DNA from: an uncultured Planctomycetia bacterium
Lineage (GTDB): Bacteria > Omnitrophota > Gorgyraeia > 2-02-FULL-51-18
DNA length: 64,000 bases
Direction: 5' to 3'
NCBI GenBank assembly: GCA_964606485.1
Contig: CAZSGP010000004.1
Location: forward strand, 92,365 to 156,364
Positions 12,076-58,911 of the stretch are shown one piece after another (the stretch's first letter is position 1; every line of letters starts with the position of its first letter). Position numbers and translations under genes: made by a program. The notes under the pieces were generated by a model. That model ran no database searches. It was given only the letters and a program-made list of their open reading frames with translations, and was not told the origin of the DNA.

Positions 12076-12139
12076 AGACTGGGTATTTTACCTCAAAACA
12101 AACACCGGCATCCATGGTAAACTATGCCCCAAAACTTCT

Positions 12140-13210
12140 ATGAAAAAGACGATTCTCTTAAATCCAGGCCCCGTCAATGTCACCCCCAGTGTGCGCCGCG
12201 CCCTTCTCAAGCCCGATATTTGCCACCGGGAACATGAGTTTTCCACACTTTTACAGTCTATCCGGACGCGGCTTCTCAAAATTTTCTCAGTGGAGCGCTC
12301 GCATACGGTTGCTTTTTTTTCGGGGTCCGGCACCACAGCGCTCGAAGCGATGCTCTGCGCCTCTGCCGCTGAAGGTAAAAAAGTACTGGTTCTCTCCAAT
12401 GGAGTTTATGGGGAACGCATCCAAAAAACGCTTCAAATTCACGAAATCTCGTCGATTGTACTAGATTCACCCATCGGGGAATTTCCAAATCTTCATTTGA
12501 TTGAAGAAACGCTTAAAAAAAATCCTGCCATTGAGTCGGTAGCGCTCGTGCATCACGAAACATCAAGCGGCATGCTCAACCCTCTAAAAGAAGTTTCGGC
12601 TCTTGCTAAAAAATACGGCAAGCTCGTTTTTGTAGACGCCATTAGCTCACTTGGCGCAGAAACCATCCATTTTAAAAATATCGATTACTTGGCGGGAACC
12701 TCGGGAAAATGCCTGCACGGCTTTCCAGGCGTTTCATTCGTCTTTATCGAAAAAAAGGCGCTCCCGAGACTGAAGAGCCTAAAAGTTCGCTCGCTGTCCT
12801 TCGATCTCTGGAATGCGTTAGAGCATCAATTGCAAAATGACACGCCGTTTACGCCGGTCGTTCAAATTTTTTACGCGTTCGATCAAGCACTCAAAGAACT
12901 CGAAAAGGAAACGTTGAGCCGGCGCATCCGCCGCTACGAAGAAAAAGCGACGCTTCTCGAAAAAGGTTTTGAAGAAATGGGGATTCAATTTTTAATTTCC
13001 AAAAAAAATCGCTCCCACGTGCTCACTGCTCTTTGGACACCGGCGTCCGTGTCCTACGCCACCCTGCACGATACGCTCAAGAAAAAAGGGTTTGTGATTT
13101 ACGCTGGCCAATCCTCGCTCAAAGGTAAAATTTTCCGTGTCGCGAATCTCGGTGATGTTTCTATCCAGGACTTAAGACGCTTTCTTGCTGCCTTCAAAAA
13201 AAGTTTATGA
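12140..13210 (+). CDS. Class V aminotransferase, 2-aminoethylphosphonate:pyruvate transaminase (PhnW)-like
   Basis: The ATG at 12140 gives MKKTILLNPGPVNV. The segments SNGVYGER, HHETSSGMLNP, VDAISSLGA, GKCLHGFPGVSFV and FRVANLGDV track the PhnW/AGXT-family conserved blocks. Confidence 0.65.
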   Translation: MKKTILLNPGPVNVTPSVRRALLKPDICHREHEFSTLLQSIRTRLLKIFSVERSHTVAFFSGSGTTALEAMLCASAAEGKKVLVLSNGVYGERIQKTLQIHEISSIVLDSPIGEFPNLHLIEETLKKNPAIESVALVHHETSSGMLNPLKEVSALAKKYGKLVFVDAISSLGAETIHFKNIDYLAGTSGKCLHGFPGVSFVFIEKKALPRLKSLKVRSLSFDLWNALEHQLQNDTPFTPVVQIFYAFDQALKELEKETLSRRIRRYEEKATLLEKGFEEMGIQFLISKKNRSHVLTALWTPASVSYATLHDTLKKKGFVIYAGQSSLKGKIFRVANLGDVSIQDLRRFLAAFKKSL

Positions 13211-13890
13211 GCGCACCGTCCGTCATTCCGCCGAGTGAGAGTTTTAAATTAAACCGTTTTTTGGCTGAGCCTTTTACGCGGCTTCTTCTAAAAACACCAC
13301 TAACGCCCAATCAAGTCACAATCCTGAGTCTAGCGTTTGGCGTCCTAAGCGGCTGGTTCATTTCATTTGGTAGCTTCATTGGTTTTGTCAGCGGAGCACT
13401 TGCATTTCAAATGGCAGCGGTGCTCGACAATTGCGACGGCAATATCGCCCGCGCAAAGAATATGCGGAGTGAGTTTGGCGGCTGGCTTGACGTGTTTTGT
13501 GACGTGCTCGTCGACATCGCCTTCTTTGTGGGTTTAACAGCCGGCGTCAAAGCGGCCGGGTTTCACGGTCCCATTTGGATAGCGGGATCGCTCTGCGTGG
13601 CCGGAAGTCTGATGAATTTTTGGGTGGTCGTCACCGAAAAATTAAAAGGGTTTGGTCCGGCCGTGTTCAATCAGTCTAACCCCAAGGAAGCTAAGCGCAG
13701 AAACTGGCTCTACAAAACTGCTGATGCCCTCCGCGAAGGCGATTCCTCCTGGTTTATCCTACTCTTTGCTCTTTTTTCAAAAATGGACTGGTTGTTGTGG
13801 AGCTCAGCGGTGTACATGCAGATTATTTGGCTGAGTTCTCTCATCATGAATTTCAAATACATTTTTCTTTCACCCAATGAAAATCGTTAA
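13207..13890 (+). CDS. CDP-alcohol phosphatidyltransferase family membrane protein
   Basis: The signature D-G-x2-A-R-x8-G-x3-D-x3-D is present as DNCDGNIARAKNMRSEFGGWLDVFCDVLVD. Confidence 0.75.
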   Translation: MSAPSVIPPSESFKLNRFLAEPFTRLLLKTPLTPNQVTILSLAFGVLSGWFISFGSFIGFVSGALAFQMAAVLDNCDGNIARAKNMRSEFGGWLDVFCDVLVDIAFFVGLTAGVKAAGFHGPIWIAGSLCVAGSLMNFWVVVTEKLKGFGPAVFNQSNPKEAKRRNWLYKTADALREGDSSWFILLFALFSKMDWLLWSSAVYMQIIWLSSLIMNFKYIFLSPNENR

Positions 13891-14866
13891 ATTTCTTCTC
13901 CTCGGACTCGGATTTTGGCTTCTTTATTTTACGATTCAAAAGGTCGGCTTTGGAAATATTGAAGGCTATCTGCGCCAAATGGGCTGGAGCGCACTCCCCA
14001 TTCTCATTATTTATCCGCTGATATTCTTTTTCGACACACTCGGCTGGCTTTACGCATTTCCCAAAAGCCTCCCCAAACACATTCCGTTTCTGGATCTTTA
14101 TTTTATTCGCATCATCGGTGAGACGATGAACTGCATCATCCCCTGGGCCGCGTCACTGGGAGGCGAGCCACTCAAAGTTCAGCTTTTAAAATCGCGTCAC
14201 GGCATATCCCTCGCCGAAGGCTACGCCTCGATTCTGATTGTTCACACCACGTTTTGGATTTCACTCAACTGTTTTGTGATTGGCGCCATCGTCTTTACGC
14301 TCAAATCGCTTCCGCTCACTCCCATTCTGTGGCACAGCGTCCTCATTTTTCTAGTGGTGCTGGGCGTAGTCGCAGCCCTACTCGTCGCGGGCCTTCACTG
14401 GGGAATTTTTGAAAGATTTCATTCGATCGGTGAAGCGTTTAAGTGGTGGGGGGAACATTCACACGAGAAAAAACAAAAATTTATCTCTCTCGATCGTGAC
14501 ATTAAAACATTTTACACCGAAAATAAATCGCGTTTTTTTCTTTCCAGTTTCTTTAACCTGCTGGGCTGGCTCATGGGAATGTTTGAAGTGTATTTTATTG
14601 GCCGCGCCCTCGGCCTGCCGATCGGAATTACCGAAGCGTGGCTTTTAGAAGCGCTGATTCAGGTTTTGCGCATCGTGACTTTTTTTATCCCCTCTTCGAT
14701 TGGAACCCAAGAAGGCGGAATCGTTCTTATCTTTTCTCAATTTGGATTCGCCGGGCCTGCGAGCCTTGCGTTTGCAATTGTGCGGAGAATCCGCGAAATG
14801 ATTTGGATTGGGTTTGGGCTCGTACTCTGGTCGCTTTTAAGCGATCGCTCAAAAACTACTTCGTAA
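13877..14866 (+). CDS. Flippase-like / lysylphosphatidylglycerol-synthase transmembrane-region family protein
   Basis: An ~8-TM protein of 329 aa, translationally coupled to the CDP-alcohol transferase; architecture typical of the UPF0104/TIGR00374 family. Confidence 0.55.
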   Translation: MKIVKFLLLGLGFWLLYFTIQKVGFGNIEGYLRQMGWSALPILIIYPLIFFFDTLGWLYAFPKSLPKHIPFLDLYFIRIIGETMNCIIPWAASLGGEPLKVQLLKSRHGISLAEGYASILIVHTTFWISLNCFVIGAIVFTLKSLPLTPILWHSVLIFLVVLGVVAALLVAGLHWGIFERFHSIGEAFKWWGEHSHEKKQKFISLDRDIKTFYTENKSRFFLSSFFNLLGWLMGMFEVYFIGRALGLPIGITEAWLLEALIQVLRIVTFFIPSSIGTQEGGIVLIFSQFGFAGPASLAFAIVRRIREMIWIGFGLVLWSLLSDRSKTTS

Positions 14867-16175
14867 AATCCCGCTCGTCGACTAAACGCGCGAGTTTCCG
14901 CTGGGTTCGAAGCGCGCCTCGTGCATGCGGAATAAAATCAATTTTACAAAATTTCATTTGATAAATATTCCACGCATCCGGCAATTCCTTTTTAAGACTC
15001 TTGAAAAAGGCTTCCGAAATTTGTCCGGGATCCCCCACAGCATCCGAGTGCTCCGCGTGGAATTCGATTAAATCCTTCCGGTCTTGTTGCTTGAGCACAA
15101 TTTGCCAGTCCGGTCCAAGCCCTGCGACACCGGAAAACACGGGTTCAAACATCCACGGCGCGATATTCCCAATCGCCGTCGGCACCCATTCATTCATTCG
15201 ACCCTTTAATTTTTCGATGCGGCGACCCGGAAGCCCACTCTTAGAAGGCGTATTGAGAAAGCGTGTCACGTCTCCTGAGCGGTAGCGCACAAGCGGCATC
15301 ACGCGGCGGTTTAAATTCGTGTACACAAGTTCGCCGTAACCTTGCGGATCGGGATTTAAAATTTCAAAAAAATTATGAAATTGATTGAGTTGGTAGCCAT
15401 CCTGCGCCAAATTTTCCATGCCGAGCGCGCCAAAGCCTTCGGTTTGCCCGTAACTTAAAAGAAACTGCGCTTTCCAAATTTTTTCGATGTATCGGCGCGT
15501 GGACTCTGCCATATTTTCGCCGCCGCCAATTAAAAGTTTTACCGGCCAAGCTCCATGCTTTTCGGCCACTTCGCTTAAACCTAGAATCCAGGAAGGGTCG
15601 CCAACAATCACCGTAATTTTATAATCTTTTAAGCGCTCATAAAAATCAGCCGGCGGAATACGCCCGGCTTCGACGTGAAAACAGCCCATCACTTTGCAAC
15701 TTGCTGAAAGCACGGGCCCTGAAACCCAAAACGAATAATCAAACGCACTGGCCACCCGGTCAGTGGGACGAACACCCACTCCCCAGAGACCCACCGCACC
15801 CGCCCAACCCGCCTCCTCAACTTCGTTTCGTGAAAAATAAACGCGCTTGGGCCGCTTGGACGTGGTCCCCGTCGTTTCGTAAGCAGTGTCCGCTTTGAGA
15901 CAAATAAATTCTTCCGGATTTTGACGAAGATCTTCAGCGGTCGTAAAAAAATCTTTTAGATCCTGCGGTGCTTTAACGGTAGAAGCGTCGATATTCAACT
16001 CTTTGAACCGCCTCTTATAAAACGGGGAGTGCTCCGCTACAAATTGAACCGTCTTTCTAAAATTATCTTCTTCGAGACGATGAAGTATTCCGTGGGGAAC
16101 ATTTTTATAAAGCCAAAATCCCCGCTCGGCAGGATTGCCGGCAGGGATTTTGTTAATAAGAGAAACGAGTGACAC
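14856..16175 (-). CDS. Adenylate-forming enzyme, phenylacetate-CoA ligase / coenzyme F390 synthetase-like (acyl-CoA or acyl-ACP ligase)
   Basis: An ANL P-loop variant TTGTTSKRPKRVYFS and a YGQTEGFG motif are present. It is the last gene of the FAS/PKS-like operon. Confidence 0.7.
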   Translation of the reverse strand: MSLVSLINKIPAGNPAERGFWLYKNVPHGILHRLEEDNFRKTVQFVAEHSPFYKRRFKELNIDASTVKAPQDLKDFFTTAEDLRQNPEEFICLKADTAYETTGTTSKRPKRVYFSRNEVEEAGWAGAVGLWGVGVRPTDRVASAFDYSFWVSGPVLSASCKVMGCFHVEAGRIPPADFYERLKDYKITVIVGDPSWILGLSEVAEKHGAWPVKLLIGGGENMAESTRRYIEKIWKAQFLLSYGQTEGFGALGMENLAQDGYQLNQFHNFFEILNPDPQGYGELVYTNLNRRVMPLVRYRSGDVTRFLNTPSKSGLPGRRIEKLKGRMNEWVPTAIGNIAPWMFEPVFSGVAGLGPDWQIVLKQQDRKDLIEFHAEHSDAVGDPGQISEAFFKSLKKELPDAWNIYQMKFCKIDFIPHARGALRTQRKLARLVDERDFTK

Positions 16176-17549
16176 TTATTTGGCGCACTTTTTAATCAAG
16201 AGATCAAACATCTCGCAAGCCAAATCCATCTCGGCTTCGGAGATATCAAACGCCGGCGCGATGGTGAACACGTTTTTGTAATAACCACCCACGTCGAGCA
16301 CCAAACCCATCTTGCCCTTGGAGGTTTGAATGCCTTGCATGCCCGCATGGAAAATGCGGTCTGTCATCTCGCGGTCCGGCGTGTAACCGTCCACCGGCGA
16401 GACAATTTCCATGCGAAGGGCCATGCCCATGCCATCGACATCGCCGATAATTTTCGGATGCTTCTTCTGCAAGTCTTTCAACTTACCTAAGAATATTTTC
16501 CCTTTTTTCTCAATGCCGCCTTGGAAATCGGTTTCCTCGGTCATTTTCATGAGCTCCAAACCCACGGCCGTGCCGAGTGTGTTGGACGAAAATGTCGAAT
16601 GCGTCGAACCCGCACCCCAAACTTTCGGGTTGATTAGCTCTTCCTTGGCCCAAATACCCGAAAGCGGGTTCAAACCATTGGTCAGCGCTTTGCCGAACAC
16701 GATGATGTCGGGCTTCACACCGAAATTGGCCATTGACCAAAGAGGCCCTGCGCGATGAAAGCCCATTTGGATTTCGTCATCCACCAAAAGCACTTTGTGT
16801 TTTTCGAGGATTTTCTTGATCGCTGGAAAATAATTTTTCGGCGGAATCACATACCCGCCGGTGCCTTGAATCGATTCGGCATAAAATGCGCCAAATTCCG
16901 ACTCACCCGCTTTAAAATCCCAGACACCGTTGTATTCGGTTTCAAATAATTTTTCAAACTGGTCCACGCAGTACATGCCACAATCCTCCGGCTTTTTGCC
17001 GTAGGGGCAGCGGTAGCAGTAAGGATACGGCACAAAATGCGCACGGTCCGAAAAGTGCCCAAAGCGCCTGCGGTACCGGTAGCTCGACGTAATCGCCGAA
17101 GCGCCCAGCGTTCTGCCGTGATAGCCGCCCATGAACGCGAACACTAAATTTTTCTTGGTGTGTTGGCGCACGATCTTCAGTGAGTCTTCCACTGCCTGCG
17201 CACCACCCACGTTAAAATGCACGCGGCCTTTTTCACCGAATAGTTTTTCTACCGAAAGCGCGATTTTTTCCGATAGTAGCACTTTTTCTTCGTGCAAATA
17301 CTGGCAAGCCAGCTGTGGCAATTTATCGATTTGCTTTTTTAGCGCCTCGCCTAAGCGTTTGTTGTTGTAGCCGAAGCTTGCGGCCGAATACCACATCTGA
17401 AGGTCGAGAAATTTATTGCCCTCACGATCGTAAAGATAGCTACCTTCACAGCGGTCAAAAAATTTCGGAGGTTCGAGGTAGTGCACGGTATCGCCGTACG
17501 AACAATATTTGGCTTCTTTCTCAAGAAGTTCTTTTTCAGAAAAGCTCAT
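16176..17549 (-). CDS. Class III (PLP fold type I) aminotransferase
   Basis: 457 aa, with the PLP-lysine context IVFGKALTNG and the conserved DDEIQMGF block. Confidence 0.75.
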   Translation of the reverse strand: MSFSEKELLEKEAKYCSYGDTVHYLEPPKFFDRCEGSYLYDREGNKFLDLQMWYSAASFGYNNKRLGEALKKQIDKLPQLACQYLHEEKVLLSEKIALSVEKLFGEKGRVHFNVGGAQAVEDSLKIVRQHTKKNLVFAFMGGYHGRTLGASAITSSYRYRRRFGHFSDRAHFVPYPYCYRCPYGKKPEDCGMYCVDQFEKLFETEYNGVWDFKAGESEFGAFYAESIQGTGGYVIPPKNYFPAIKKILEKHKVLLVDDEIQMGFHRAGPLWSMANFGVKPDIIVFGKALTNGLNPLSGIWAKEELINPKVWGAGSTHSTFSSNTLGTAVGLELMKMTEETDFQGGIEKKGKIFLGKLKDLQKKHPKIIGDVDGMGMALRMEIVSPVDGYTPDREMTDRIFHAGMQGIQTSKGKMGLVLDVGGYYKNVFTIAPAFDISEAEMDLACEMFDLLIKKCAK

Positions 17550-18184
17550 GAATTCTCCTTATTGGCGCTTAACCACTTTGTAATTTCTTTAAACGTTGAA
17601 TATTCTAAATGTTCGATTTTATTTTCCTGACAATACTTCAGTAGTTTCTTTTTCGCAAAAACAATATCCGCCGTGTGCGCGGCAAAGCGGTCCGAGAGTC
17701 CGTCGCCGATAAATACAGTCGTGTGCCCTGATTTTCGATGCTTCTCGATCACATCGACCTTGCAATTTGCACACCCATGTTTGCAGGGCGTCTTTTTATA
17801 AAAGGATATTTTGGGGCCTTGCGGAGTAAACAAAATGCTATTGGAGTAGATCGGCATAGTTTGGCCCATCACGCGCTGAATCACAAAATCAAGGCCGTCA
17901 CTGACAATGCTCGCCGGAATATGATGCTCTTCTATGACATTTAAAAAATCTTCAAATCCCGGATCAATCCGAACTTCCGTTAACATCTTCGCGAGCGACG
18001 CCTTATCCGCTTTCACAAGTTCAAATTGCCGCGTGAGGCATTCCCGCGAACCAATTTTCCCGCTCGCCCATTCTTCTTCGATGGTTTTCCACGAGGGGTC
18101 CGCAAATCTTTCTAAAATCATATCGATCACATCGTTTTGTGTGACCGTGCCGTCAAAGTCGATAAAAAATTGAATTTTTTCCAT
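17546..18184 (-). CDS. HAD-superfamily phosphatase, MtnX-like
   Basis: HAD motif I FIDFDGTVTQND; a Cys cluster CKHGCANCK; a C-terminal IGDGLSDRFAAHTADIVFAKKKLL block paralleling Bacillus MtnX. Confidence 0.65.
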   Translation of the reverse strand: MEKIQFFIDFDGTVTQNDVIDMILERFADPSWKTIEEEWASGKIGSRECLTRQFELVKADKASLAKMLTEVRIDPGFEDFLNVIEEHHIPASIVSDGLDFVIQRVMGQTMPIYSNSILFTPQGPKISFYKKTPCKHGCANCKVDVIEKHRKSGHTTVFIGDGLSDRFAAHTADIVFAKKKLLKYCQENKIEHLEYSTFKEITKWLSANKENS

Positions 18185-19453
18185 TTAATCCTTAAAGCGC
18201 TTCACAACCAGCGCCACGTTTTGACCGCCGAATCCAAAAGAATTACTCAAAACAGAATCGACTTTCGCTTTCCGCGCGTGATTGGGAACGTAGTCTAGAT
18301 CACAGTCCGGATCTGGGTTCTCATAATTAATCGTCGGTGGAATGATCCCTTCGCGGATCGTGAGCACGCTTGCGATGAGCTCCACCGCCCCCGCCGCGGC
18401 AATCATGTGTCCGAGCATTGATTTGATCGAGCTTACCGGAATCGACGAAGCACCCATTCCAAATACCTGCTTGATCGCCAAAGTTTCCACTTGGTCGTTG
18501 AGCTGAGTCGACGTCCCGTGTGCGTTGATATAATCCACGCCTTTTCCGGACAATTGCGCGTTTTCTAGAGCAAGCTTCATGGCGCTGATGGCGCCGCGCC
18601 CTTGCGAATGTGGATCGGTCAGCCGATACGCATCCGCCGTTGTTCCGTAACCGGCAAGTTCCGCATAAATCGTCGCCCCGCGTTTTTTAGCGTGCTCGAG
18701 CTCTTCTAAAATCAGTGCCCCCGCGCCTTCAGCAAGTACAAATCCATCCCGCGCTTTATCGAATGGTCTTGACGCTTTTTGAGGCGCATCATTTTGCGTG
18801 GAAAGAGCCGTTAAAAGATTAAAACCCGCGACTCCGAGCGGATGAATCATCGAATGCGCGCCACCCGTTAAAATCACGTCCGCTTCACCCCCGCGGATAA
18901 TTTCAGCGCTTTCCCCGATCGCTTGGCTCGACGCTGCGCACGCCGTTAGACAATTCGAAATAATTCCTTCCGCGCCGAAGTGATCCGCCAAATGCCGAAT
19001 CACCGCTTGAGGCTCTTGTTCGGCGAGAGACTGCGCATCCGCCATTTGAAGTGTGTTGCGAATATAAGACGCTGCGTCTACATGTTCGTGTCCGTTTAAA
19101 ATAGATTTTGAAATAATTGACGCGTAGCTAGGAAAATTAAACCCACCGTCTCCCGCCCCAAAATACACACCGAAGCGCTCAGGCTTAAAATGGTTTTTAA
19201 GTTTAGCGTCGTCGAATGCTTGCTGACTTGCCGCCAAAGCAAAATGACTATTGCGGCCGAGCTTCTTTTGTTTCGAAAAATCAAAATGCTTCACCTCACC
19301 GGCAATTTTGGTCGGAAACGATTTGGCGTTAAAAATGGAGATGGGCGCAATGCCGCTTTTTCCGTCAAGCAGTGCTTTCCAGGTTTCGGCCACGCTATTG
19401 CCAAGCGGTGTAACCGCTCCGATTCCAGTAATCACTACCCTTTTGAGAGACAT
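18185..19453 (-). CDS. Beta-ketoacyl-ACP synthase II-type ketosynthase (catalytically intact)
   Basis: The catalytic Cys is present in LTACAAS, and both His residues are present in NAHGTST and [11 protein letters not shown]; 422 aa. Confidence 0.9.
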
Positions 19454-19456
19454 CGA

Positions 19457-20704
19457 TTAACCCTTAAACGTTTCAATGATCACGGAAGAACTGGGTCCTC
19501 CGAGACCAAAACTTGTAACCAGCGCGCGCTGAAGCGGCACAGATACCGCATTTTGTTTCACCACTTTAAAATCAAATGGAATCGCCGCTTGTTCGAAATT
19601 TTGAATCGGTCCGATTTGTTGCGCGTTGAGTGCCTTCACGGCAATCAGAAGATCGAGCGCGCCGGATACAAAACCGGTAAATCCTGTCACAGGCTTCGAC
19701 GCGCTCACCCAAGTCTCTTTCGAATGGCTTCCAAAATTTTCAGTGAGCGCCTTCATTTCCTGCCGGTCATCGGCAGCAATGCCGATCCCCGACGCCTGAA
19801 TGTACGAAATATCTTTTGCGGTCAACCCCGACTTTTGAAACGCCGCTCGAATCGCATGCGACTGTCCGTCAGATGACGACGAACCGTATCCGGCCACTTT
19901 GGCGTAAATCGTCGCACCGCGTTTTCTGGCGTGTTCGAGTTCTTCAAAAACTAGAAAACAGGCGCCTTCACCCGGAACCAAGCCTTGTGCTTTGTGATCA
20001 AACGGCCGGTACAATTTTTTTGGATCTTTTTGGCCATTTTTTTCGGAGAGACTCTTCAAAGACGCGTACTGCGAATACCCAACCGGATTAATTTTTGATT
20101 CGGCACCACCGGCAAGCATCATGTTCGCCGTTCCGCGCTCGATAATCCGGCAAGCTTCTTCGACCGCTTGAAGGCCGCTCGACGCTCCCGTCGTGATGGT
20201 ATTGCTCGGACCTCTCAAATCAAAAAGAATTGAAATGTGACAAGCGGGCATATTGGGCAAATATTTTAAAAGCCAGAGTGGAAAAAGTGCGTGGAGCCCT
20301 TCTTCGCCAAATCGCTCTAAACTTAAATCACCCTTTTCGTCGTAGGAACTTTTAACCGATGACGCGAGTTCGTCTAGCTCGTGACTCAGGACACCGGCAC
20401 CGACCGTGATTCCCGCCTTGTCGTGATCGAGCTCTGAAAGATTAATCTTAGAGTCTTCCATCGCGAGTTTCGCAGCCCCCACGGCCATTTGAATATCGCG
20501 GGCCATGACTTTGATAGACTTGCGATTGGCAATGTAGCGCTCAGGATTAAAATCCTTGAGATACGCTCCCGTTGGATTCCAGCCGTCAAATGACAAATCT
20601 TCAATCGCAGAGCGCCCGGAAATCCACGCGTCCCAAAGCGGCGTAACCCCTTCACCAGCGGCGCTTAAAACGCCTAAGCCTGTGATCACCACTTCGCGCT
20701 TCAT
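19457..20704 (-). CDS. Ketosynthase homologue lacking the Cys-His-His triad (chain-length-factor / KS-beta-like)
   Basis: Full-length KS fold of 415 aa. The aligned positions read TITTGASSG (no Cys), IQASGIGIAADD (no His) and KPVTGFTGFVSGA (no His). Confidence 0.75.
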   Translation of the reverse strand: MKREVVITGLGVLSAAGEGVTPLWDAWISGRSAIEDLSFDGWNPTGAYLKDFNPERYIANRKSIKVMARDIQMAVGAAKLAMEDSKINLSELDHDKAGITVGAGVLSHELDELASSVKSSYDEKGDLSLERFGEEGLHALFPLWLLKYLPNMPACHISILFDLRGPSNTITTGASSGLQAVEEACRIIERGTANMMLAGGAESKINPVGYSQYASLKSLSEKNGQKDPKKLYRPFDHKAQGLVPGEGACFLVFEELEHARKRGATIYAKVAGYGSSSSDGQSHAIRAAFQKSGLTAKDISYIQASGIGIAADDRQEMKALTENFGSHSKETWVSASKPVTGFTGFVSGALDLLIAVKALNAQQIGPIQNFEQAAIPFDFKVVKQNAVSVPLQRALVTSFGLGGPSSSVIIETFKG

Positions 20705-21177
20705 CGGGCTTCACTCGCTTGGGCGACTTCCATGACTTGGTAATGCTCCATAAACCCTTCATTAAAAACAATTTTTTTGTCCTGCGACGCATCTAGCGAA
20801 TCAATGCTCATTAAAAGAATTTCGGCACTTGCCACTTTTTCGTCTTCGCACCAGACTTCGCCCCTGACCACCGCGCCGCTTTCGCTTTCTTCACGCAGTT
20901 CCACCTCGATTTCCAGTTTACAAGGAGGTGTCACCGCTTTATAAAATTTTGATTCCGAAATTTTCACCAAAATCACTTCTTTTTTAAATTCGAGCCCTAA
21001 CCCAAACAAAACGCCTCCCGTTTGCGCGATCATTTCTACAAAAAGCGGCTCGGGAACGCGTGGGTTGCCTGGAAAATGTTCAGCAAAAAAATCTTCTTGG
21101 CCCGAGTATGCTTTTAAAGCACGGGCGTAACTTCCCTTTTTTAGAACTTCAAACTTGTCGACTAAATGCCAGCGCAC
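20701..21177 (-). CDS. FabZ/FabA-like 3-hydroxyacyl-ACP dehydratase (hotdog fold)
   Basis: HFPGNPRVPEPLFVEMIAQ matches the dehydratase active-site motif HxxGxPxxPG. Confidence 0.75.
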   Translation of the reverse strand: MRWHLVDKFEVLKKGSYARALKAYSGQEDFFAEHFPGNPRVPEPLFVEMIAQTGGVLFGLGLEFKKEVILVKISESKFYKAVTPPCKLEIEVELREESESGAVVRGEVWCEDEKVASAEILLMSIDSLDASQDKKIVFNEGFMEHYQVMEVAQASEAR

Positions 21178-21479
21178 AAAGCCACCACATGGTCTTTGGA
21201 ATTGACGAAGCGGATTTTAAAATTTCTTTTACGCGAAGAAGATAGAATCTGAATATTTTTGAAGCCCTCGGTTCCCATCCAGGGTTCGTGTCCGGCTTTG
21301 AATGCCGCTTCTTTAGCGGCCAGAAGTTTGGCTAAATTTTTGTAAGGACTGCGGTGTCTTGAAATGAATCGGATTTCTTTGGAGTTAAAAAAGGATTCCA
21401 GGCGATTTTGGTGATTTTTGTAAAACTCGCGGGCTTTGCGGTATTCCACCAAATCCACGCCCAGAGAAATTTTTTCCAC
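21162..21479 (-). CDS. acpS: Holo-ACP synthase (4'-phosphopantetheinyl transferase, AcpS type)
   Basis: ISLGVDLVEY and LAAKEAAFKA match the AcpS motifs. The start is placed at the GTG at 21479, 5 nt after the ACP stop. The longer ORF reaching 21593 would overlap the ACP gene by >100 nt. Confidence 0.55.
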   Translation of the reverse strand: MEKISLGVDLVEYRKAREFYKNHQNRLESFFNSKEIRFISRHRSPYKNLAKLLAAKEAAFKAGHEPWMGTEGFKNIQILSSSRKRNFKIRFVNSKDHVVALCAGI

Positions 21480-21484
21480 TTTTT

Positions 21485-21883
21485 TTAGGACTTTGTGACG
21501 GCTAATTTCTCCGTAAGGTAATCCACAATCATACCGACCGTGAACACGTCGCCGAGATTGGCGACAACAGGATTTTTGGAAAATTCCGTCCATTTTCCAC
21601 TGGGAATTCTTTTTTTGAGTTCTTCTAGGCCTGCCGACGTCACACGCCCTTCTTTGACGAAGTTCGGATCCGTCAATAATTTCTCAGGAAAGAGCTCGCC
21701 CTTCGGAATTTTAATTTTAAATGCTTTTTCCAAACGAAAAACAATGTCCAGAAAATCAATGGACTCGGCGCCCAGATCTTTAATGAGCGAAGCTTCAAGT
21801 GTGATCTTGGCTTCCTCGGCCCGCAAGGCTTGGCCGATAATGTTTTTAACTTGTTTGATAATTTCTTGCTTATCGTTTGTCAC
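21485..21883 (-). CDS. Acyl carrier protein with ~55-aa C-terminal extension
   Basis: The phosphopantetheine attachment context DLGAESIDFLD lies in the first ~70 aa. The total length of 132 aa is unusually long for an ACP. Confidence 0.7.
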   Translation of the reverse strand: MTNDKQEIIKQVKNIIGQALRAEEAKITLEASLIKDLGAESIDFLDIVFRLEKAFKIKIPKGELFPEKLLTDPNFVKEGRVTSAGLEELKKRIPSGKWTEFSKNPVVANLGDVFTVGMIVDYLTEKLAVTKS

Positions 21884-21900
21884 GTGCTGAAAACTCCTTT

Positions 21901-22644
21901 TTATTTACGCCCCAGAAGGCTAATGCCCCCATCCACCGTAAAAATTTGTCCGGTGATGTAGCGCGCCTTTTCCGAAGCCAAAAAGCAAACCATGTCCGCT
22001 ATTTCCTGGGGCAATGCAAAACGCCCCAGCGGAATTCTTTCTTTAATCTTGTCCCCAAACGCGGAGCGCGCTGCTTCCGACATTTGCGTTTCCACCATGC
22101 CGGGCGACACCGCATTCACCGTCACGTTTTTCGAAGCCAGTTCCGACGCGAGTGATTTTGTAAACGCGTTGATCGCTCCTTTTGACGCCGCATAATTGGT
22201 CTGGCCAACTCCGCCAAGCTCTCCCACAATCGAGGAGAGATTGATAATAGCGCCTTGACGCTGAGAAACCATGGGCCGCGCTGCCACCTTACAAAACCGG
22301 TACACGCCGCCGAGATTGGTCTCCAGAACGTCCTGCCAATCTTCATCCGAGAGAGTTAAAAAAAGCCCGTCTTTGATGATGCCGGCATTATTCACCAAAA
22401 TATCGATCCGCTCTTCTTTCGATAAAATTTGATCCACACAATCGTCGACACTTTGAGCGTTTTTGACGTCACAAACGATGGCGCGGTCGAGCGGCAATTT
22501 CAATTTCTTTAAAAGAACTTCGGCGTCGGTCTTTGACTGACGCACCGTAAAATAAACTTTAGCGCCCTGCTCGACGAGGCCTTCTACAACCGCGGCGCCA
22601 ATTCCCTTCGAGCCGCCGGTCACAAGTGCCACGGCTGTACTCAC
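21901..22644 (-). CDS. fabG: 3-oxoacyl-ACP reductase (SDR)
   Basis: VALVTGGSKGIGAAV Rossmann motif, NNAG, and the YAASKGAI catalytic YxxxK. Confidence 0.9.
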   Translation of the reverse strand: MSTAVALVTGGSKGIGAAVVEGLVEQGAKVYFTVRQSKTDAEVLLKKLKLPLDRAIVCDVKNAQSVDDCVDQILSKEERIDILVNNAGIIKDGLFLTLSDEDWQDVLETNLGGVYRFCKVAARPMVSQRQGAIINLSSIVGELGGVGQTNYAASKGAINAFTKSLASELASKNVTVNAVSPGMVETQMSEAARSAFGDKIKERIPLGRFALPQEIADMVCFLASEKARYITGQIFTVDGGISLLGRK

Positions 22645-23039
22645 AGCGCTTCGAGCTCCAATGTTGCGACAAAAACCTTCGCTTTTGTCTCGGGCGCTAT
22701 CAAATCAATCCGCCCTTCAAACCGGGCTTTGGATTCCTTTTCGTCTATAAGCCGAGAAAAAATTTTAAGCGTACTGCCCGGTTTTACAAAATAACCAAAT
22801 TTCACGTCCATAGCCGACACTAAGCGAAAATGACTGTCGCTTGTCTGTTTTTTTTCGGCTAAAAATTTTGCTGAAACTTGCTTCACAGCCTCTAAAAGCA
22901 GAACGCCCGGCATCACCGGGAACGATTCAAAATGATCCTGTAAAAACTCTTCGGACCCTTTGAGTGTAAATAAAGCCGTCATCGAGTCGGCACTCGCTTG
23001 CTCGACCCGGTCCACAAACGTAAATACTTTCAAAAACAA
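22641..23039 (-). CDS. Second FabZ/FabA-like hotdog dehydratase
   Basis: DHFESFPVMPGVLLLEA dehydratase motif; 132 aa. Confidence 0.7.
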   Translation of the reverse strand: MFLKVFTFVDRVEQASADSMTALFTLKGSEEFLQDHFESFPVMPGVLLLEAVKQVSAKFLAEKKQTSDSHFRLVSAMDVKFGYFVKPGSTLKIFSRLIDEKESKARFEGRIDLIAPETKAKVFVATLELEAL

Positions 23040-23102
23040 GCCTTTTGGTTAGATTACAAACCATCAATATAGCATGGGTTAGGGGCCTTGCCAAGAGCCC
23101 GT

Positions 23103-23867
23103 TTAGGAGTCAGATTTGGACAGTTCAGCCCGTCTTTGGGCCCTTAAATCTTGAACAGGATTGCCGCCCCAGTAGCTTCGGGGGGGCACTCGCGTGCCTT
23201 TGGGCACAAAACTGCAGGGCGCAATGGTCGAACCATCCCCAATTTCCACGTCCGGCATGATCACGGAGTTGATTCCGATCGAAACGTTATTCCCAAGCTT
23301 CGTGCGAGCCAGACGAATAAAACCCCTCTCCGACGCATGGCAAATGAGGGCCGTTCCTCCACCCACAAGAACGTGATCTCCAATTTCCAGTAAGGATAGG
23401 TCCGCCAGTCCTCCGGTGTTGATATTCACGCCATTGCCGACTTTGGCGCCCATCAGACGGTAAAACAAAGTTTGGAACGGAGAGATGCGTAGAACATCTA
23501 AAAAGGCGGCATTCGCAATGAGAATCATCGAGTTGTAGCCCATCCAGCGCAAAGACTCCATAGCGTGGATCTTGTACAAACCCGGTTCGATTCTAAACCT
23601 AAAAACATTTTTGGCGAGTACACAAACAAAAATTAGCGTCGTTCCAAATAGAAAATAGCCAATCCCCAGGGACATCGAAAACGCCAAAAGCTTGACCCAA
23701 ACGCCGTAGACACCGGTCGCTTTCCACACCCAATAGAAAAAAGCGATCATGGGGAAAAAGCTAAATCCCAAGATAAGGGCTGCTAAGAGATGCAAGCCGT
23801 AAAGCCATTGCTGGAATCGCTTTTCATCGGCTTTCGCCTGCTTCATTTTTTCATCGGGGGTTGCCAT
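23103..23867 (-). CDS. Membrane-anchored left-handed beta-helix (hexapeptide-repeat) acyltransferase
   Basis: N-terminal TM helices are followed by hexapeptide repeats (VGNGVNINTGGLADLSLLEIGDHVLVGGG..., IGINSVIMPDVEIGDGSTIAP). The start is uncertain: GTG at 23885 or ATG at 23867 or 23846. Confidence 0.55.
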   Translation of the reverse strand: MATPDEKMKQAKADEKRFQQWLYGLHLLAALILGFSFFPMIAFFYWVWKATGVYGVWVKLLAFSMSLGIGYFLFGTTLIFVCVLAKNVFRFRIEPGLYKIHAMESLRWMGYNSMILIANAAFLDVLRISPFQTLFYRLMGAKVGNGVNINTGGLADLSLLEIGDHVLVGGGTALICHASERGFIRLARTKLGNNVSIGINSVIMPDVEIGDGSTIAPCSFVPKGTRVPPRSYWGGNPVQDLRAQRRAELSKSDS

Positions 23868-23912
23868 GAGTCTGGATTTTAACACATAGAGATGTTAAAT
23901 TAACGCCTGAAC

Positions 23913-24662
23913 ATGAGCTCTCACAAAAAAACAATCTTTATCAGCGGTGGCACTCGCGGAATTGGGCGCGCCATCACCCTTTCCCAGGCATCGGAAAAAA
24001 CCTGCCTTCTTTTGAATTATCTCCGCGACGAAGAGTCCGCGCTTCAAGTCAAACACGACGCCGAAAAAAAAGGCGCGGAAGTTCATTTGTACGCAGGAAA
24101 TGTCGGAGACACTGAGAATGTTAAATCCATCTTTGAACTGGTTGCGAAAGACCATCCCCGGATTGACGGCCTCATTCACAGCGCAGCACTCGGCGTCTTT
24201 AAACCGGTGCACCAATTGCGGGCCAAAGATTGGGACATTTCGATGGACGTAAACGCTCGCGCGCTTTTAACGCTGACGCAAAGCGCCCTGCCGCTCATGA
24301 AATCGCACGGCGGAAAAATTATTGCGATTTCCAGTCTCGGCGCCGGTCACTACACACCAAACTACGGCGCAATCGGTATTTCAAAAGCGGCTATGGAAAA
24401 TTTAGTGAGGTATCTGGCCGTCGAACTTTCGGTATTTAAAATTCAAGTCAATGCGGTCTCTGGCGGCCTTGTCGACACAGAGTCTCTCAAGATGTTTCCG
24501 GATTCCGAGAAAATGAAAAAAGAATACCTCCAAAAAACTCCCGGTGGACGACTTGGTCAACCCGAGGACATTGCGAGCGTCGTCTCCTTTCTTCTCAGCG
24601 AACAAAGCAACTGGATCATGGGCCAAACGTTGATCGCGGACGGTGGCTATTCTCTCTCCTAA
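23913..24662 (+). CDS. SDR-family oxidoreductase (ketoreductase or enoyl-reductase-like)
   Basis: The FISGGTRGIGRAI glycine-rich motif and the YGAIGISK YxxxK context; 249 aa. Confidence 0.8.
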   Translation: MSSHKKTIFISGGTRGIGRAITLSQASEKTCLLLNYLRDEESALQVKHDAEKKGAEVHLYAGNVGDTENVKSIFELVAKDHPRIDGLIHSAALGVFKPVHQLRAKDWDISMDVNARALLTLTQSALPLMKSHGGKIIAISSLGAGHYTPNYGAIGISKAAMENLVRYLAVELSVFKIQVNAVSGGLVDTESLKMFPDSEKMKKEYLQKTPGGRLGQPEDIASVVSFLLSEQSNWIMGQTLIADGGYSLS

Positions 24663-25818
24663 TTTGATCTGGGACGTTCTTTTAAGTCTCATTGGCCTTG
24701 AGTGGTTGAGACGTGCGGTTTGGGTTTCACTTCTTAAAAAATCTCATCCTCCCCTCGAAGCGCGGCGATTTTTAAATCCCACGGCACCGTTTGTCTCCAT
24801 CATCGTTCCGGCAAAAAACGAAGAAGCCAATATCGAAAAATGCTTAAGCTTTCTTTTTAAACAAGATTACCCTAACTTTGAAATTATCGTCGTTAATGAT
24901 CGTTCAACTGACCGCACGGGTCAGATACTGGAAAGTCTTTCTAAAAAATCTCCGGTACCCATAAAAGTATTAACGATTGAAAAATTACCTCCTGGCTGGA
25001 CAGGTAAAAATCATGGCATGTTTGCCGCGTCAAAAGCCGCGCAAGGTGAATGGATTTTATTCACAGACGCGGACACTACCCATGAGCCCCTGTCGCTTGC
25101 CACAGCTTTGGATGAAGCTCTCACCAAAAAAATAGATTTTTTAACACTGTCTCCTGAAACGGAGAGTCACTCGTTTTGGGAAAAAACGGTTCAACCTCTC
25201 GCGGCCTCAAGCCTCGCGCTGTGGTTTGACCCACACAAGGTGAATGATTCCAAAAACCCAGTCGCCTTAGCGAATGGTCAATTTATTCTCGTCAAAAAAT
25301 CGGTTTATGACGCTTCCGGCGGCAATGAAGCGGTAAAAACTGAAGTCGTGGAAGACGTCGCACTCGCGCGACGCACCCGCGCCATGGGCTACTCGGTGTA
25401 TTTCCTAAACGGATCGCGTCTATATTCGACCCGGATGTATTCGTCGCTTTCGGAAATCATCACGGGTTGGACGCGGATTTTGATTTATCTTTTTGATAAA
25501 AATATCCCAGCAATTTTACATAAAATATTTTTATTTTTATTTTTTTCGATTCTGCCTTTTGCAATCGCGCTCTTTGAAAGCATCGCATGGTTCTCCAACC
25601 GAAGCGCTTTTAACGCGCCTCTTTTTGTGGGAAGCCTGCTGGTTTGCAAACTGATTATTGCGCTCCGATTTATCGGAAATAAACTTGTGAAAACAAATCC
25701 CTGGTTTTCATTTCTGCACCCGGTCGGGTCGCTTGTGATGACGTGGATTTTACTGATTTGTATTTGGAGAATTCTTCTAAAAAAATCGTCAGTGTGGCGC
25801 GGAGATTTTTACAAGTAA
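24643..25818 (+). CDS. Family 2 glycosyltransferase with C-terminal multi-TM domain
   Basis: The GT-A features VSIIVPAKNEE, IIVVNDRSTDRT and FTDADT (DxD-like) are followed by several TM helices. Confidence 0.75.
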   Translation: MAILSPNLIWDVLLSLIGLEWLRRAVWVSLLKKSHPPLEARRFLNPTAPFVSIIVPAKNEEANIEKCLSFLFKQDYPNFEIIVVNDRSTDRTGQILESLSKKSPVPIKVLTIEKLPPGWTGKNHGMFAASKAAQGEWILFTDADTTHEPLSLATALDEALTKKIDFLTLSPETESHSFWEKTVQPLAASSLALWFDPHKVNDSKNPVALANGQFILVKKSVYDASGGNEAVKTEVVEDVALARRTRAMGYSVYFLNGSRLYSTRMYSSLSEIITGWTRILIYLFDKNIPAILHKIFLFLFFSILPFAIALFESIAWFSNRSAFNAPLFVGSLLVCKLIIALRFIGNKLVKTNPWFSFLHPVGSLVMTWILLICIWRILLKKSSVWRGDFYK

Positions 25819-25821
25819 CTT

Positions 25822-25868
25822 TCCTCCCTTTACCAAGGGGCGGTGTCCGCCTCAGCGGACGGAGGGGT
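25822..25868. repeat. Family-B structured palindromic element, copy 2
   Basis: CCTCCCTTTACCAAGGGGCGGTGTCCGCCTCAGCGGACGGAGGGG. Hairpin 2 carries compensatory changes relative to copy 1 (GTCCAC/GTGGAC becomes GTCCGC/GCGGAC). It sits between convergent stop codons. Confidence 0.5.
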
Positions 25869-25871
25869 GGT

Positions 25872-26675
25872 TTAGTCCGATGTGTTATACACTCTCATTA
25901 AATGCCGGTTAGCTACTTCTTTAAATTCCTCGTCTCTCTCTAAATCCACTCGCAACTCTCGATACGCGTAAGAACCGGTCAGCTGGTCATCCCAGTCGTA
26001 AAGCTTCATTTCCGACGGCAGTCCCGTTGTTTCCTCAAATACCGTCTCAACGCGGTAGGCAAAATAATCTTCGTCATCTGTCGTGTCCTCAAACGTCACA
26101 CGCGTCGCGGCTCCAGAGTGTTCTACTTTCAATTTATGCTGTTCGTACGCTTTTAAAACCGCCTTCGAAAAATCATAAAGAAAAGTTCCGATCCCTGCGT
26201 CTTCAATGTTATAAGAGCCGCTTCCTTCCCGAATCCACGGACTGTTCTGCTCTAAAAAAATCACCGGCGCAAACCCAAGCAATAGCCCTGGCTTGTGAAT
26301 GGCCAGTTTGTTGTCATGCTTTCCGCGCTCATAAACAACTTGCAGCCCTTTTTTGTGAGTATTCATCCAGCCCATAAAAAGTTTAAAGGGTTTTTCGAAT
26401 TTGAATAAAATTTTTTCAGTGGCTCCCATTTTTCCATCTTTGTCGAGCTCCGTTTTTTCAAAAAGCGCCTTATAATTTTGAAGTGAGTCGTAGCGCAGCA
26501 GTGCCTTCTCCAAGTTTTCTGCTAGACGGATCTCATCCGGATTCTGAGAAGATAACCTCAGCGCCGCAAGCCCTGCCGAGAGATCTTGAGAGGAAGACGC
26601 CAATACCGCCGGTACGCTCAAAAAAAGAAAGACTCCTAAAAAAATGGAAATCGTATAGGACTTTTTAGAGCTCAC
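25872..26675 (-). CDS. Secreted hypothetical protein
   Basis: Signal peptide MSSKKSYTISIFLGVFLFLSVPAVLASS; 267 aa; no recognisable motif. Confidence 0.4.
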   Translation of the reverse strand: MSSKKSYTISIFLGVFLFLSVPAVLASSSQDLSAGLAALRLSSQNPDEIRLAENLEKALLRYDSLQNYKALFEKTELDKDGKMGATEKILFKFEKPFKLFMGWMNTHKKGLQVVYERGKHDNKLAIHKPGLLLGFAPVIFLEQNSPWIREGSGSYNIEDAGIGTFLYDFSKAVLKAYEQHKLKVEHSGAATRVTFEDTTDDEDYFAYRVETVFEETTGLPSEMKLYDWDDQLTGSYAYRELRVDLERDEEFKEVANRHLMRVYNTSD

Positions 26676-53744: not shown

Positions 53745-53795
53745 CGAAAAATTCTACCACTAAGGACTTCTTTGGACCTATGTGAGTTTTATGAG

Positions 53796-58814: not shown

Positions 58815-58901
58815 TTAAAAAATCTCCGGTTTCAACATTGCGATGATGAGATACACCAGCAATGCAATGGCCAGACTTCCGCCGATCCAATAAATTGTCA
58901 T
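58815..58901 (-). CDS. kdpF: Potassium-transporting ATPase subunit F (28-aa TM peptide)
   Basis: MTIYWIGGSLAIALLVYLIIAMLKPEIF. Its TAA stop overlaps the kdpA ATG, and its size and ...PEIF C-terminus match KdpF. It is not in the supplied ORF track. Confidence 0.6.
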   Translation of the reverse strand: MTIYWIGGSLAIALLVYLIIAMLKPEIF

Positions 58902-58911
58902 CGCTTTCTCC

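Follow-up and report, generated by a model that had tools for sequence, protein, structure and literature searches.

A type II fatty acid synthase-like gene cluster with an active and an inactive ketosynthase in Omnitrophota, possibly feeding a glycosylated envelope aminolipid

In 2025 a third pathway to ornithine lipids was shown in Singulisphaera acidiphila. It consists of OlsH, a GH3-like and ATP-dependent N-acyl-ornithine synthetase using a free fatty acid and ornithine, and OlsI, an α/β-hydrolase working as an O-acyltransferase. In planctomycetes both are always encoded in one operon, and the source of the free fatty acid for OlsH as well as the acyl donor for OlsI were left open (PMC12493201). 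An adjacent module of acyl carrier protein (ACP) and ketosynthase (KS) genes beside olsHI is mentioned neither there nor in a review (PMC12971839). Pairs of KS resembling a KS with its chain length factor (CLF) have been catalogued in Candidatus Omnitrophica and Planctomycetes as 'type II FAS-FAS' pairs (FAS, fatty acid synthase; PMC10132072) and 'ladderane' biosynthetic gene clusters have been listed in metagenome-assembled genomes (MAGs) of Omnitrophota (PMC9902471), in both cases with no gene-level analysis, product or mechanism given. A further related system is the C-terminal membrane polymerisation domain of the homopoly(amino acid) synthetases Pls and PosA (products ε-poly-L-lysine and δ-poly-L-ornithine), which in PosA links a carrier-bound thioester to a diamino acid through the amine of its side chain and has been modelled as three repeats, each of two transmembrane (TM) helices and a β-helix, packed like the trimer of a left-handed β-helix (LbH) acyltransferase (PMC10522769). 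Here we describe a gene cluster that shares features with all of these. It lies in a 64-kb stretch of DNA from an uncultured member of the Omnitrophota (contig CAZSGP010000004.1 of assembly GCA_964606485.1, positions 92,365 to 156,364; this whole stretch is called the window below), and the FAS-FAS pairs and ladderane calls probably include this type of locus.

By sequence the cluster encodes a full reductive elongation cycle made up of a private ACP with its own phosphopantetheinyl transferase (AcpS), an active KS followed by a second KS without catalytic residues (dead KS), two FabZ-type dehydratases (DH1 and DH2), the ketoreductase (KR) FabG and a FabL-type enoyl reductase (ER). ORF calling together with Pfam and NCBIfam searches bore out all 13 genes between positions 14856 and 25818, at the coordinates and with the families that an initial annotation of the sequence had assigned to an 11-gene minus-strand operon and two divergent plus-strand genes, the latter encoding a short-chain dehydrogenase/reductase (SDR) and a family 2 glycosyltransferase (GT2). 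Two details had to be changed, as the SDR turned out to be of the FabL type and the gene order in the core is DH2-FabG-ACP-AcpS-DH1. Furthermore, the unit reaches past 25818 to 27634 and includes a DUF1571 protein and an α/β-hydrolase. Neighbouring genes of the operon are spaced by −16 to +17 nt, with a 63-nt gap after the LbH gene as the sole exception, and this tight and partly overlapping arrangement points to translational coupling. That the locus is a specialised type II FAS- or polyketide synthase (PKS)-like lipid locus, as had been suggested, agrees with its content of active and dead KS, own ACP and AcpS, KR and two dehydratases. Our leading interpretation, which we hold tentatively and rate slightly below an even chance, is that a dedicated FAS-like module supplies the chain for a glycosylated envelope aminolipid of the N-acyl (acyloxyacyl) type, for which we infer the product and several of the enzyme roles.

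A profile search with the dead KS in species-representative genomes resulted in 591 related loci spread over Omnitrophota and Planctomycetota, and synteny was analysed in 80 of these. In Omnitrophota the locus is widespread: metagenomes, among them those of groundwater and sediment, contributed more than 120 clusters of proteins with ≥50% identity. The conserved core consists of DH2, a long ACP, often AcpS, DH1, dead KS and KS, with variable flanking genes, and the loci fall into four tiers and one further arrangement (L041), given here with the identity of their dead KS to that of the window. Tier 1 (Omnitrophota, 50–57%) has the gene order of the window with LbH protein, phosphatase, aminotransferase, ligase, FabL, GT2, α/β-hydrolase and DUF1571 protein. 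Tier 2 (Omnitrophota, 40–43%) shows FabL, an S-adenosylmethionine (SAM) methyltransferase, the core, a thioester reductase, GT2, an MMPL/sterol-sensing transporter and sometimes a B12 radical SAM protein. L041 (Omnitrophota, 40%) is arranged as DUF1571-GT2-AMPlig-FabL-DH2-ACP-AcpS-DH1-deadKS-KS-α/β-hydrolase, AMPlig being the adenylating ligase. Tier 3 (Planctomycetota including Kolteria novifilia Pan216, 36–40%) has DH2-FabG-ACP-DH1-deadKS-KS-α/β-hydrolase, and Tier 4 (Planctomycetota, 34–38%) consists of a solitary dead KS in which Glu or Asp takes the place of the Cys. AcpS was found in Tier 1, Tier 2 and L041, and the FabL-type ER is encoded in the window as well as in almost every Omnitrophota version covering that side, whereas Tier 3 clusters have no ER. 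FabG is optional, being missing from several Tier 1 and all Tier 2 clusters; within Tier 1 it is located inside the cluster in the window, L002, L009, L014, L015 and L025, while elsewhere DH2 abuts the ACP, so that ketoreduction in those members would be borrowed from elsewhere in the genome. Beyond the core, the DUF1571 protein and the α/β-hydrolase go with it in three independent arrangements (Tier 1, L041 and Tier 3), GT2 is linked to it in three different gene orders and the ligase in two (Tier 1 and L041), never together with GH3. Aminotransferase, phosphatase and LbH protein always co-occur and are confined to one lineage. The nearest named relatives of the locus are Candidatus Omnitrophota MAGs. 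The same locus is also present on a Logan metagenome contig, where AcpS is called as a gene of 105 aa, and the lists of homologues for dead KS, ligase and DUF1571 protein contained almost exclusively close Omnitrophota relatives and no fresh gene contexts.

The active KS reaches 490.3 bits on the fabF model TIGR03150 (cutoff 493.75, thus just below) and is 43.6% identical to E. coli FabF vs 35% and 29% to ApeR and ApeO of the aryl-polyene (APE) cluster. Its matches to PRK06501 and PRK06519, which we take to be the models of FabF1XL and FabF2XL from rhizobia, are below cutoff as well. In the dead KS the alignment shows Ala, Ser and Phe in place of Cys, His and His, and these substitutions recur in virtually all Tier 1 homologues, with Ala at the Cys position in 15 of 17 loci and Val or Pro in the other two. 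The dead KS is 32.8% identical to E. coli FabF and has no match to ApeC; a search of a plasmid collection gave ordinary fabF genes as top matches (32–33% identity). In the PDB both KS proteins are nearest to FabF, and in the comparison with a CLF the best hits were FabF with ~190 bits vs 111 bits for the actinorhodin CLF. An aromatic type II PKS was rejected on these grounds, the active-site residue being Ala and not the Gln of a CLF. Presumably the dead KS is the partner of the active KS.

To compare the cluster KS with those of primary metabolism we used an identity matrix and a neighbour-joining tree without bootstrap values, which included E. coli FabF and two planctomycete FabF, one from L065 (beside fabD-fabG) and one from L078 (adjoining a Tier 4 dead KS). 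The cluster KS of Tiers 1–3 form one clade and all dead KS another, both spanning Omnitrophota and Planctomycetota, with the three housekeeping FabF outside of both and the APE KS furthest out. Identity among KS is 51–69% within the cluster clade vs 43–45% to the housekeeping FabF. According to the initial annotation, KS genes clustering with housekeeping FabF/FabB, together with synteny of the locus to the organism's only fabZ/fabG/acpP genes, would have spoken for the primary FAS; in our tree, which carries no bootstrap values, they have clades of their own.

Some of the relatives differ enough to be mentioned separately. The loci L018–L036 (e.g. L022:4843-17301) are Omnitrophota clusters of the Tier 2 type, whose product is probably a glycosylated fatty alcohol. 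Among the Tier 4 loci, L078:8477-11290 has a dead KS with Glu/Asp for Cys and the first His kept directly after a housekeeping FabF, and in L065:9992-20902 a fabD-fabG-fabF set is located ~6 kb away from the dead KS. In Planctomycetota the primary FAS may thus also make use of a dead FabF partner. In 11 planctomycete loci (L045, L047, L048, L052, L057, L064, L067, L069, L073, L080 and L081) genes of ~400 residues with a GNAT domain are located ~1–3 kb upstream of a stand-alone dead KS, as tandem pairs in L048, L057, L067 and L080, and these may represent another N-acyltransferase link.

We compared all window proteins with the APE cluster of E. coli CFT073 and the fab genes of K-12 (blastp, E 0.01), as the initial annotation had favoured an aryl-polyene-like product. 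No protein of the locus is nearer to APE than to housekeeping FAS II, and ApeC, ApeH, ApeJ and ApeL have no detectable homologue among the locus proteins in this comparison. The ACP is 41% identical to E. coli AcpP vs 31% to ApeF, and FabG 42% to E. coli FabG vs 35% to ApeQ. DH1 (72.6 bits on TIGR01750, below cutoff) is 34% identical to E. coli FabZ and has no APE match, and both dehydratases are labelled as ApeI-like in a precomputed Pfam table, albeit weakly. What the locus shares with ApeA–R is the functional part list, with an MMPL transporter only in the Tier 2 relatives. It differs in that ApeC is a truncated CLF of 240 aa and the dead FabF of the window has 415 aa, that ApeH bears the label acyl-CoA synthetase in the CFT073 record and the PaaK-family ligase of the window shows no blastp similarity to it, that the DUF1571 protein shares just the LolA fold and no blastp match with ApeL, that aminotransferase, phosphatase and Pls-type LbH protein have no APE counterpart and that an ER is present.

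This ER is the divergent SDR. Among the NCBIfam models it scores 264 bits on PRK08063 (FabL), followed by 172 bits for the next enoyl-ACP reductase family and 151 bits for the best FabG family; in the PDB FabL from B. subtilis (3oic) is the top hit with 205 bits vs 120 for the next one, and the Y-x6-K motif aligns. By these criteria it is a FabL-type enoyl reductase. As the KS-KR-DH-ER cycle is complete, a saturated chain is favoured over a polyene, and the acyl chain predicted from the gene set is probably saturated. An unusual part of the core is the ACP, with an insertion of ~45 residues between helices III and IV that in the alignment is conserved across all tiers and both phyla, while E. 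coli AcpP as well as ApeE and ApeF from the APE cluster lack it. Similar in the architecture of the core is the rhizobial AcpXL cluster for very-long-chain fatty acids (acpXL-fabZXL-fabF2XL-fabF1XL-adhA2XL-lpxXL), which is likewise derived from FAS II, borrows the remaining FAS II functions and has a dedicated ACP, a FabZ-like protein and two tandem FabF-like proteins in the same order (PMC11901934). In contrast to it, the window encodes neither AdhA2XL nor a lipid A acyltransferase of the LpxXL type, and its ACP carries the insertion.

The connection to OlsH/OlsI comes from the planctomycete relatives, which carry the same α/β-hydrolase family and a GH3/OlsH-like gene right after the KS. In L033 (Kolteria novifilia), L039 and L079 the core is directly followed by the α/β-hydrolase and a GH3-like gene of ~570 residues, with DUF1571 near these Tier 3 loci, and L044, truncated upstream where the contig ends, shares this set of genes. 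For the copy from L039, the only one scanned, the sole NCBIfam match is OlsH_GH3_orni with 140.8 bits (cutoff 620). In Omnitrophota GH3 is absent and the PaaK-like ligase is found instead, alongside the same α/β-hydrolase and DUF1571 partners, and we read it as a presumed non-orthologous replacement of GH3. Since ligase and GH3 are mutually exclusive and share these partners, a late role of the ligase fits better than one in starter activation. Among the NCBIfam families the ligase scores highest with DVU_1553 (152 bits), followed by PaaK and FlxY, all below cutoff, and its best PDB match is PaaK (4r1l, 119 bits). The α/β-hydrolase has an N-terminal membrane anchor, and in the alignment with its counterparts from L041 and Tier 3 the serine of the GxSxG motif, the Asp and the His are invariant; by analogy it is a candidate OlsI-like O-acyltransferase or thioesterase. 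The initial annotation had pointed out that a thioesterase and an exporter are missing from the operon, which is true for the operon itself, although this hydrolase and a LolA-fold protein are encoded next door and an MMPL transporter in relatives. The window resembles the OlsH/OlsI system in that adenylation at the expense of ATP, a membrane α/β-hydrolase and an amine partner come together for an N-acyl lipid, and differs from it by a PaaK-family ligase in place of GH3 and by the addition of the FAS-like module, the class III aminotransferase, the HAD phosphatase, the Pls-type LbH protein, GT2 and the LolA-fold protein.

The LbH protein is the part that tells most about this lineage-specific module. 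Its top NCBIfam family is TIGR02353 with 99 bits (cutoff 423) over nearly its full length, residues 10–244 corresponding to profile positions 460–695, and has TM segments at 27–54 and 62–95. An exhaustive HMMER search gave 3632 relatives, with stand-alone proteins of ~250 residues ranking first, followed by proteins of ~1300 residues with three tandem matches, of which the four that were checked are non-ribosomal peptide synthetases (NRPS) of the type A-T-TIGR02353. Judged by these matches, the LbH protein represents one unit, encoded on its own, of the C-terminal polymerisation domain of Pls/PosA and is homologous to one of the three repeats of that domain. The Pls/PosA domains are its only characterised relatives, and in them the amine of a diamino acid attacks the carrier-bound thioester. 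Unlike Pls and PosA it has a single repeat, which presumably forms a homotrimer, and no fused adenylation and thiolation domains, and its gene sits in a fatty-acid-type operon with an ACP. By analogy we propose that it may act as a transferase from acyl-S-ACP to an amine (or hydroxyl). The contexts of three stand-alone homologues (two unrelated, one on a contig too short) were uninformative and therefore give no independent support for a carrier-protein substrate.

The aminotransferase is the most conserved gene of the cluster, with 77–84% identity across Tier 1 compared to ~67% for the KS and 68–75% for the housekeeping gene glmS. It keeps the lysine for pyridoxal phosphate (PLP), and its nearest NCBIfam models are those for acetylornithine, γ-aminobutyrate (GABA) and diaminobutyrate (DABA) aminotransferases, all below cutoff; together with the PDB matches this places it near enzymes for ornithine, acetylornithine, GABA and diaminobutyrate and near PLP racemases of the same fold. 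We propose by analogy that it could make or modify the amine partner, perhaps a diamino acid of the ornithine or diaminobutyrate type; alternatively it could transaminate an ACP-bound keto intermediate, like the class III transaminase AmcC from cispentacin biosynthesis, which acts on an ACP-tethered keto intermediate (PMC10698177). With this precedent and with the relatives of the enzyme, head-group supply and amination on the ACP are both possible. The HAD phosphatase is closest in the PDB to MtnX (2fea, 103 bits) and then to phosphoserine phosphatases, with a visible DxDxT motif. GT2 has predicted TM segments and resembles the lipid glycosyltransferases HpnB (148 bits) and CruG (155 bits), both below the NCBIfam cutoff, and the ceramide glucosyltransferase family. 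For the DUF1571 protein the AF2 model (pLDDT 89.4) gave LolA, RseB and LolB as top Foldseek hits (E 3.7e-8, probability 1.0), and the model suggests a periplasmic lipid carrier; we found no papers under 'DUF1571' in the literature.

From these assignments we propose the following pathway. Malonyl-ACP supply by FabD and acetyl-CoA carboxylase (ACC) would be borrowed from primary metabolism and the ACP would be converted into its holo form by its dedicated AcpS. The finished chain, probably saturated or 3-hydroxylated, would then be amide-linked to an amino compound, for which two routes are conceivable: the membrane LbH protein may transfer the chain directly from acyl-S-ACP, or the chain may be released and subsequently adenylated by the PaaK-like ligase as a stand-in for GH3/OlsH. 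The class III aminotransferase, possibly together with the HAD phosphatase, would supply or tailor the amine, our best guess being a diamino acid of the type named above. The α/β-hydrolase could add a second acyl chain like OlsI or serve as thioesterase, GT2 would add a sugar to the lipid and the LolA-fold DUF1571 protein would carry it across the periplasm, probably to the outer membrane.

Several points weigh against this proposal. Tier 2 joins the same core to thioester reductase, methyltransferase, GT2 and MMPL transporter without any amine-related gene, and the core is therefore not intrinsically an aminolipid module. Glycosylation occurs, to our knowledge, in no known ornithine-lipid pathway, and we know of no lipid data for Omnitrophota. 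A tblastn search detected no GH3/OlsH gene in the window, and the GH3-like match in L039 is far under the OlsH cutoff. Moreover, the equivalence of ligase and GH3 is suggested solely by their mutually exclusive occurrence, and those PaaK enzymes that have been characterised ligate CoA to small or aryl acids. The role of the α/β-hydrolase is a candidate one, drawn from its family and gene position. Two stand-alone LbH homologues are found in contexts without any carrier protein, and the HAD phosphatase stays unexplained in the scheme. With these reservations the phrase of the initial annotation, an 'amino-lipid that is acylated or glycosylated', is still the best reading of a locus that was rightly called uncharacterised.

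In a more specific version of the pathway, which we regard as rather improbable, a stand-alone, presumably homotrimeric and ancestor-like unit of the polymerisation domain of ε-polylysine synthetase would join the privately made chain on the insertion-bearing ACP to a diamino acid, followed by glycosylation and transfer to the LolA-like carrier, and the outcome would be a hitherto unseen envelope lipid. If true, it would be the first Pls-type membrane condensation enzyme using a fatty-acid ACP rather than an NRPS carrier, and the long-sought source of acyl chains for the planctomycete OlsH/OlsI pathway would be found in the KS/dead-KS module.

Of the competing explanations a starter-primed lipid survives best, even if we consider it unlikely. 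Here the ligase would load an unusual starter acid, provided with the help of aminotransferase and phosphatase, onto the ACP, the KS/dead-KS pair and the reductive enzymes would elongate it into an ω-substituted saturated chain, and LbH protein or α/β-hydrolase would off-load it before glycosylation by GT2. The recognisable relatives of the ligase indeed activate small acids (PaaK, 2-hydroxyisobutyryl-CoA synthetase and FlxY from flexirubin biosynthesis), and the pathways to APE, flexirubin and cispentacin begin with an adenylating loader (PMC10698177). The linkage of the ligase to the core in two gene orders would fit as well, as would the Tier 2 relatives, which clearly lead to a non-amine product with reductive release and GT2. 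However, Tier 2 and Tier 3 clusters have no such loader at all, and the mutual exclusion of ligase and GH3 amide synthetase beside common α/β-hydrolase and DUF1571 partners fits a starter enzyme less well than one with a late role.

A β-amino or otherwise aminated fatty acid, formed by the aminotransferase on the ACP-bound β-keto intermediate and condensed, possibly iteratively, as amino-acyl thioester by the LbH protein, is a doubtful alternative. Its precedent is the AmcB–H system for cispentacin and coronafacic acid, which shares with the window an adenylating enzyme as loader, an ACP, a KS whose partner is inactive, a hot-dog enzyme, an ER, a class III aminotransferase and a hydrolase (PMC10698177). 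The membership of the LbH protein in the Pls/PosA family, which joins amines to carrier-bound thioesters, and the constant co-occurrence of aminotransferase, phosphatase and LbH protein would suit it too, but this co-occurrence is limited to one lineage and the phosphatase is not explained by this scheme either. All Amc models that were matched stay below cutoff (AmcF 230 vs 325, AmcE 28.8 vs 140 and AmcB 25.7 vs 80 bits), the matches listed for the ligase do not include AmcH, and the best 25 of 69 families for the aminotransferase contain none of the Amc models. In addition, the window differs from the cispentacin system in having a full KR/DH/ER set for long chains and no cyclisation logic, and its membrane transferases and carrier protein point to a lipid and not to a small amino acid.

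It is very unlikely that the locus is the primary type II FAS of the organism. Every part of the core is FAS II-like, the KS misses the cutoff of the fabF equivalog just barely, the neighbours are housekeeping genes in ordinary base composition, and the evidence on fab sets covers the 64-kb window. Within this scope, however, neither the locus nor the whole window contains fabD, fabH, acc or pls genes (including plsX), and a tblastn search of the window for further fab paralogues was negative. Many close versions lack FabG and those of Tier 3 the ER, hence the missing steps have to be supplied elsewhere, the planctomycete housekeeping FabF in fabD-fabG-fabF contexts are located outside the clade of the cluster KS, and the release and tailoring genes joined to the core vary. 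The lack of fabD, fabH and acc and of an in-cluster FabG in many close relatives also agrees with the initial annotation, which had preferred a specialised over a primary role.

Least probable is an aryl-polyene-like pigment cluster, despite the parallel presence of adenylating enzyme, KS with inactive partner, ACP, KR, two dehydratases, GT2 and LolA-fold protein, the weak ApeI-like Pfam matches of both dehydratases and the MMPL transporter in Tier 2 relatives, because there is no orthology (KS 29–35% to ApeO/ApeR vs 43.6% to FabF), the dead KS is full length compared to the 240-aa ApeC and a FabL-type ER is present. A biotin/pimelate pathway with BioC/BioH-like enzymes, considered because of methyltransferase and α/β-hydrolase in relatives, was dropped as there is no BioF, BioD or BioB, and ladderanes were dropped as their sole pointer is the B12 radical SAM protein of Tier 2 with 73 bits on the 'lipid biosynthesis B12/radical SAM' family (cutoff 360).

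The features of the cluster and a convergent trio of genes next to it are collected in Table 1.

Table 1. Genes of the cluster and the adjacent convergent trio, with positions in the window and the matches or motifs behind their assignment.
Feature	Position	Strand	Match or motif
Convergent trio: PhnW/AepZ-like class V aminotransferase, CDP-alcohol phosphatidyltransferase, HpnL-like flippase-like membrane protein	12065-14866	+	Pfam, NCBIfam
PaaK/F390-synthetase-family adenylate-forming enzyme (AMPlig)	14856-16175	-	Pfam AMP-binding, AMP-binding_C_2
Class III PLP aminotransferase	16176-17549	-	Pfam Aminotran_3, 237 bits
MtnX-like HAD-IB phosphatase	17546-18184	-	TIGR01489, 104 bits vs cutoff 81.55
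Active FabF-like KS	18185-19453	-	TIGR03150 fabF; Cys-His-His intact
Dead KS, full-length FabF paralogue, 415 aa	19457-20704	-	Ala, Ser and Phe in place of Cys-His-His
FabZ-like dehydratase DH1	20701-21177	-	Pfam FabA; FabZ His and Glu motifs kept
AcpS-type phosphopantetheinyl transferase	21162-21479	-	Pfam ACPS
Dedicated ACP, 132 aa	21485-21883	-	Pfam PP-binding; serine kept
FabG ketoreductase	21901-22644	-	TIGR01830, 278.8 bits; Y-x3-K motif
FabZ-like dehydratase DH2	22641-23039	-	Pfam FabA, NCBIfam FabZ; His and Glu motifs kept
Membrane LbH protein, 260 aa	23103-23885	-	TIGR02353 single unit; 2 TM helices and left-handed β-helix
FabL-type NADPH enoyl-ACP reductase (earlier 'SDR')	23913-24662	+	NCBIfam PRK08063; Y-x6-K motif
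Membrane GT2, lipid-glycosyltransferase type	24643-25818	+	Pfam Glycos_transf_2, Glyco_transf_21
Secreted DUF1571 protein, LolA-type fold	25872-26675	-	Pfam DUF1571; signal peptide
Membrane-anchored α/β-hydrolase	26672-27634	-	Pfam α/β-hydrolase families; Ser-Asp-His triad

The convergent trio is syntenic only in Tier 1, which is uninformative because synteny there extends to unrelated genes, for instance glmS; it may contribute a head group or flipping to the pathway. Its PhnW/AepZ-like aminotransferase reaches 352.9 bits on the model for 2-aminoethylphosphonate aminotransferase (cutoff 360.8) and is translationally coupled to the CDP-alcohol phosphatidyltransferase and the HpnL-like protein, with no pepM or ppd in the window, and the trio may be a module for a phosphono- or phospho-head-group lipid. 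An ORF at 23895-24215 on the minus strand was rejected as a spurious antisense ORF. A scan for promoters and terminators gave match counts at chance level. The sole near-consensus σ70-like site is found at 23066-23094 on the minus strand (TTGGCA and TATATT spaced by 17 nt, preceded by an upstream TG), where 63 nt separate the LbH and DH2 genes, and the LbH gene may be transcribed separately from it. By Pfam the remainder of the window contains only housekeeping genes in ordinary base composition, and the Rfam scan of the window detected one tRNA and nothing else. Three ORFs have no Pfam match, one of 1453 residues at 2126-6487 and two at 50162-51781 (539 aa) and 53646-54332 (228 aa), and a bacterial inward-rectifier-type potassium channel (IRK_C, Ion_trans_2) is encoded at 46446-47348, with a full set of kdp sensor and pump genes (55006-62437) at a distance of ~8 kb.

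In summary we have described a specialised lipid cluster derived from FAS II, which as such is a known type of system. What appears to be new is its gene composition, the ACP with the insertion, a single-unit Pls-type enzyme in a fatty-acid operon and the link to OlsHI, and the lipid product is probably new as well; in the literature on fatty acid synthesis in Omnitrophota and on long-chain hydroxy fatty acids of planctomycetes we found no description of this locus. The Omnitrophota are abundant, mostly ultra-small and almost wholly uncultured, and we know of nothing reported on their envelope lipids, to one of which the locus offers a concrete and expressible route. It also ties together the uncharacterised FAS-FAS KS pairs of bacteria from the Planctomycetes-Verrucomicrobia-Chlamydiae (PVC) group, the OlsH/OlsI pathway from 2025 and the membrane domain of Pls/PosA. 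For the latter, whose mechanism is unsolved, the single unit of 260 residues would be a far simpler model, and the cultured Kolteria novifilia Pan216, which carries the planctomycete version of the cluster, could serve for genetics.

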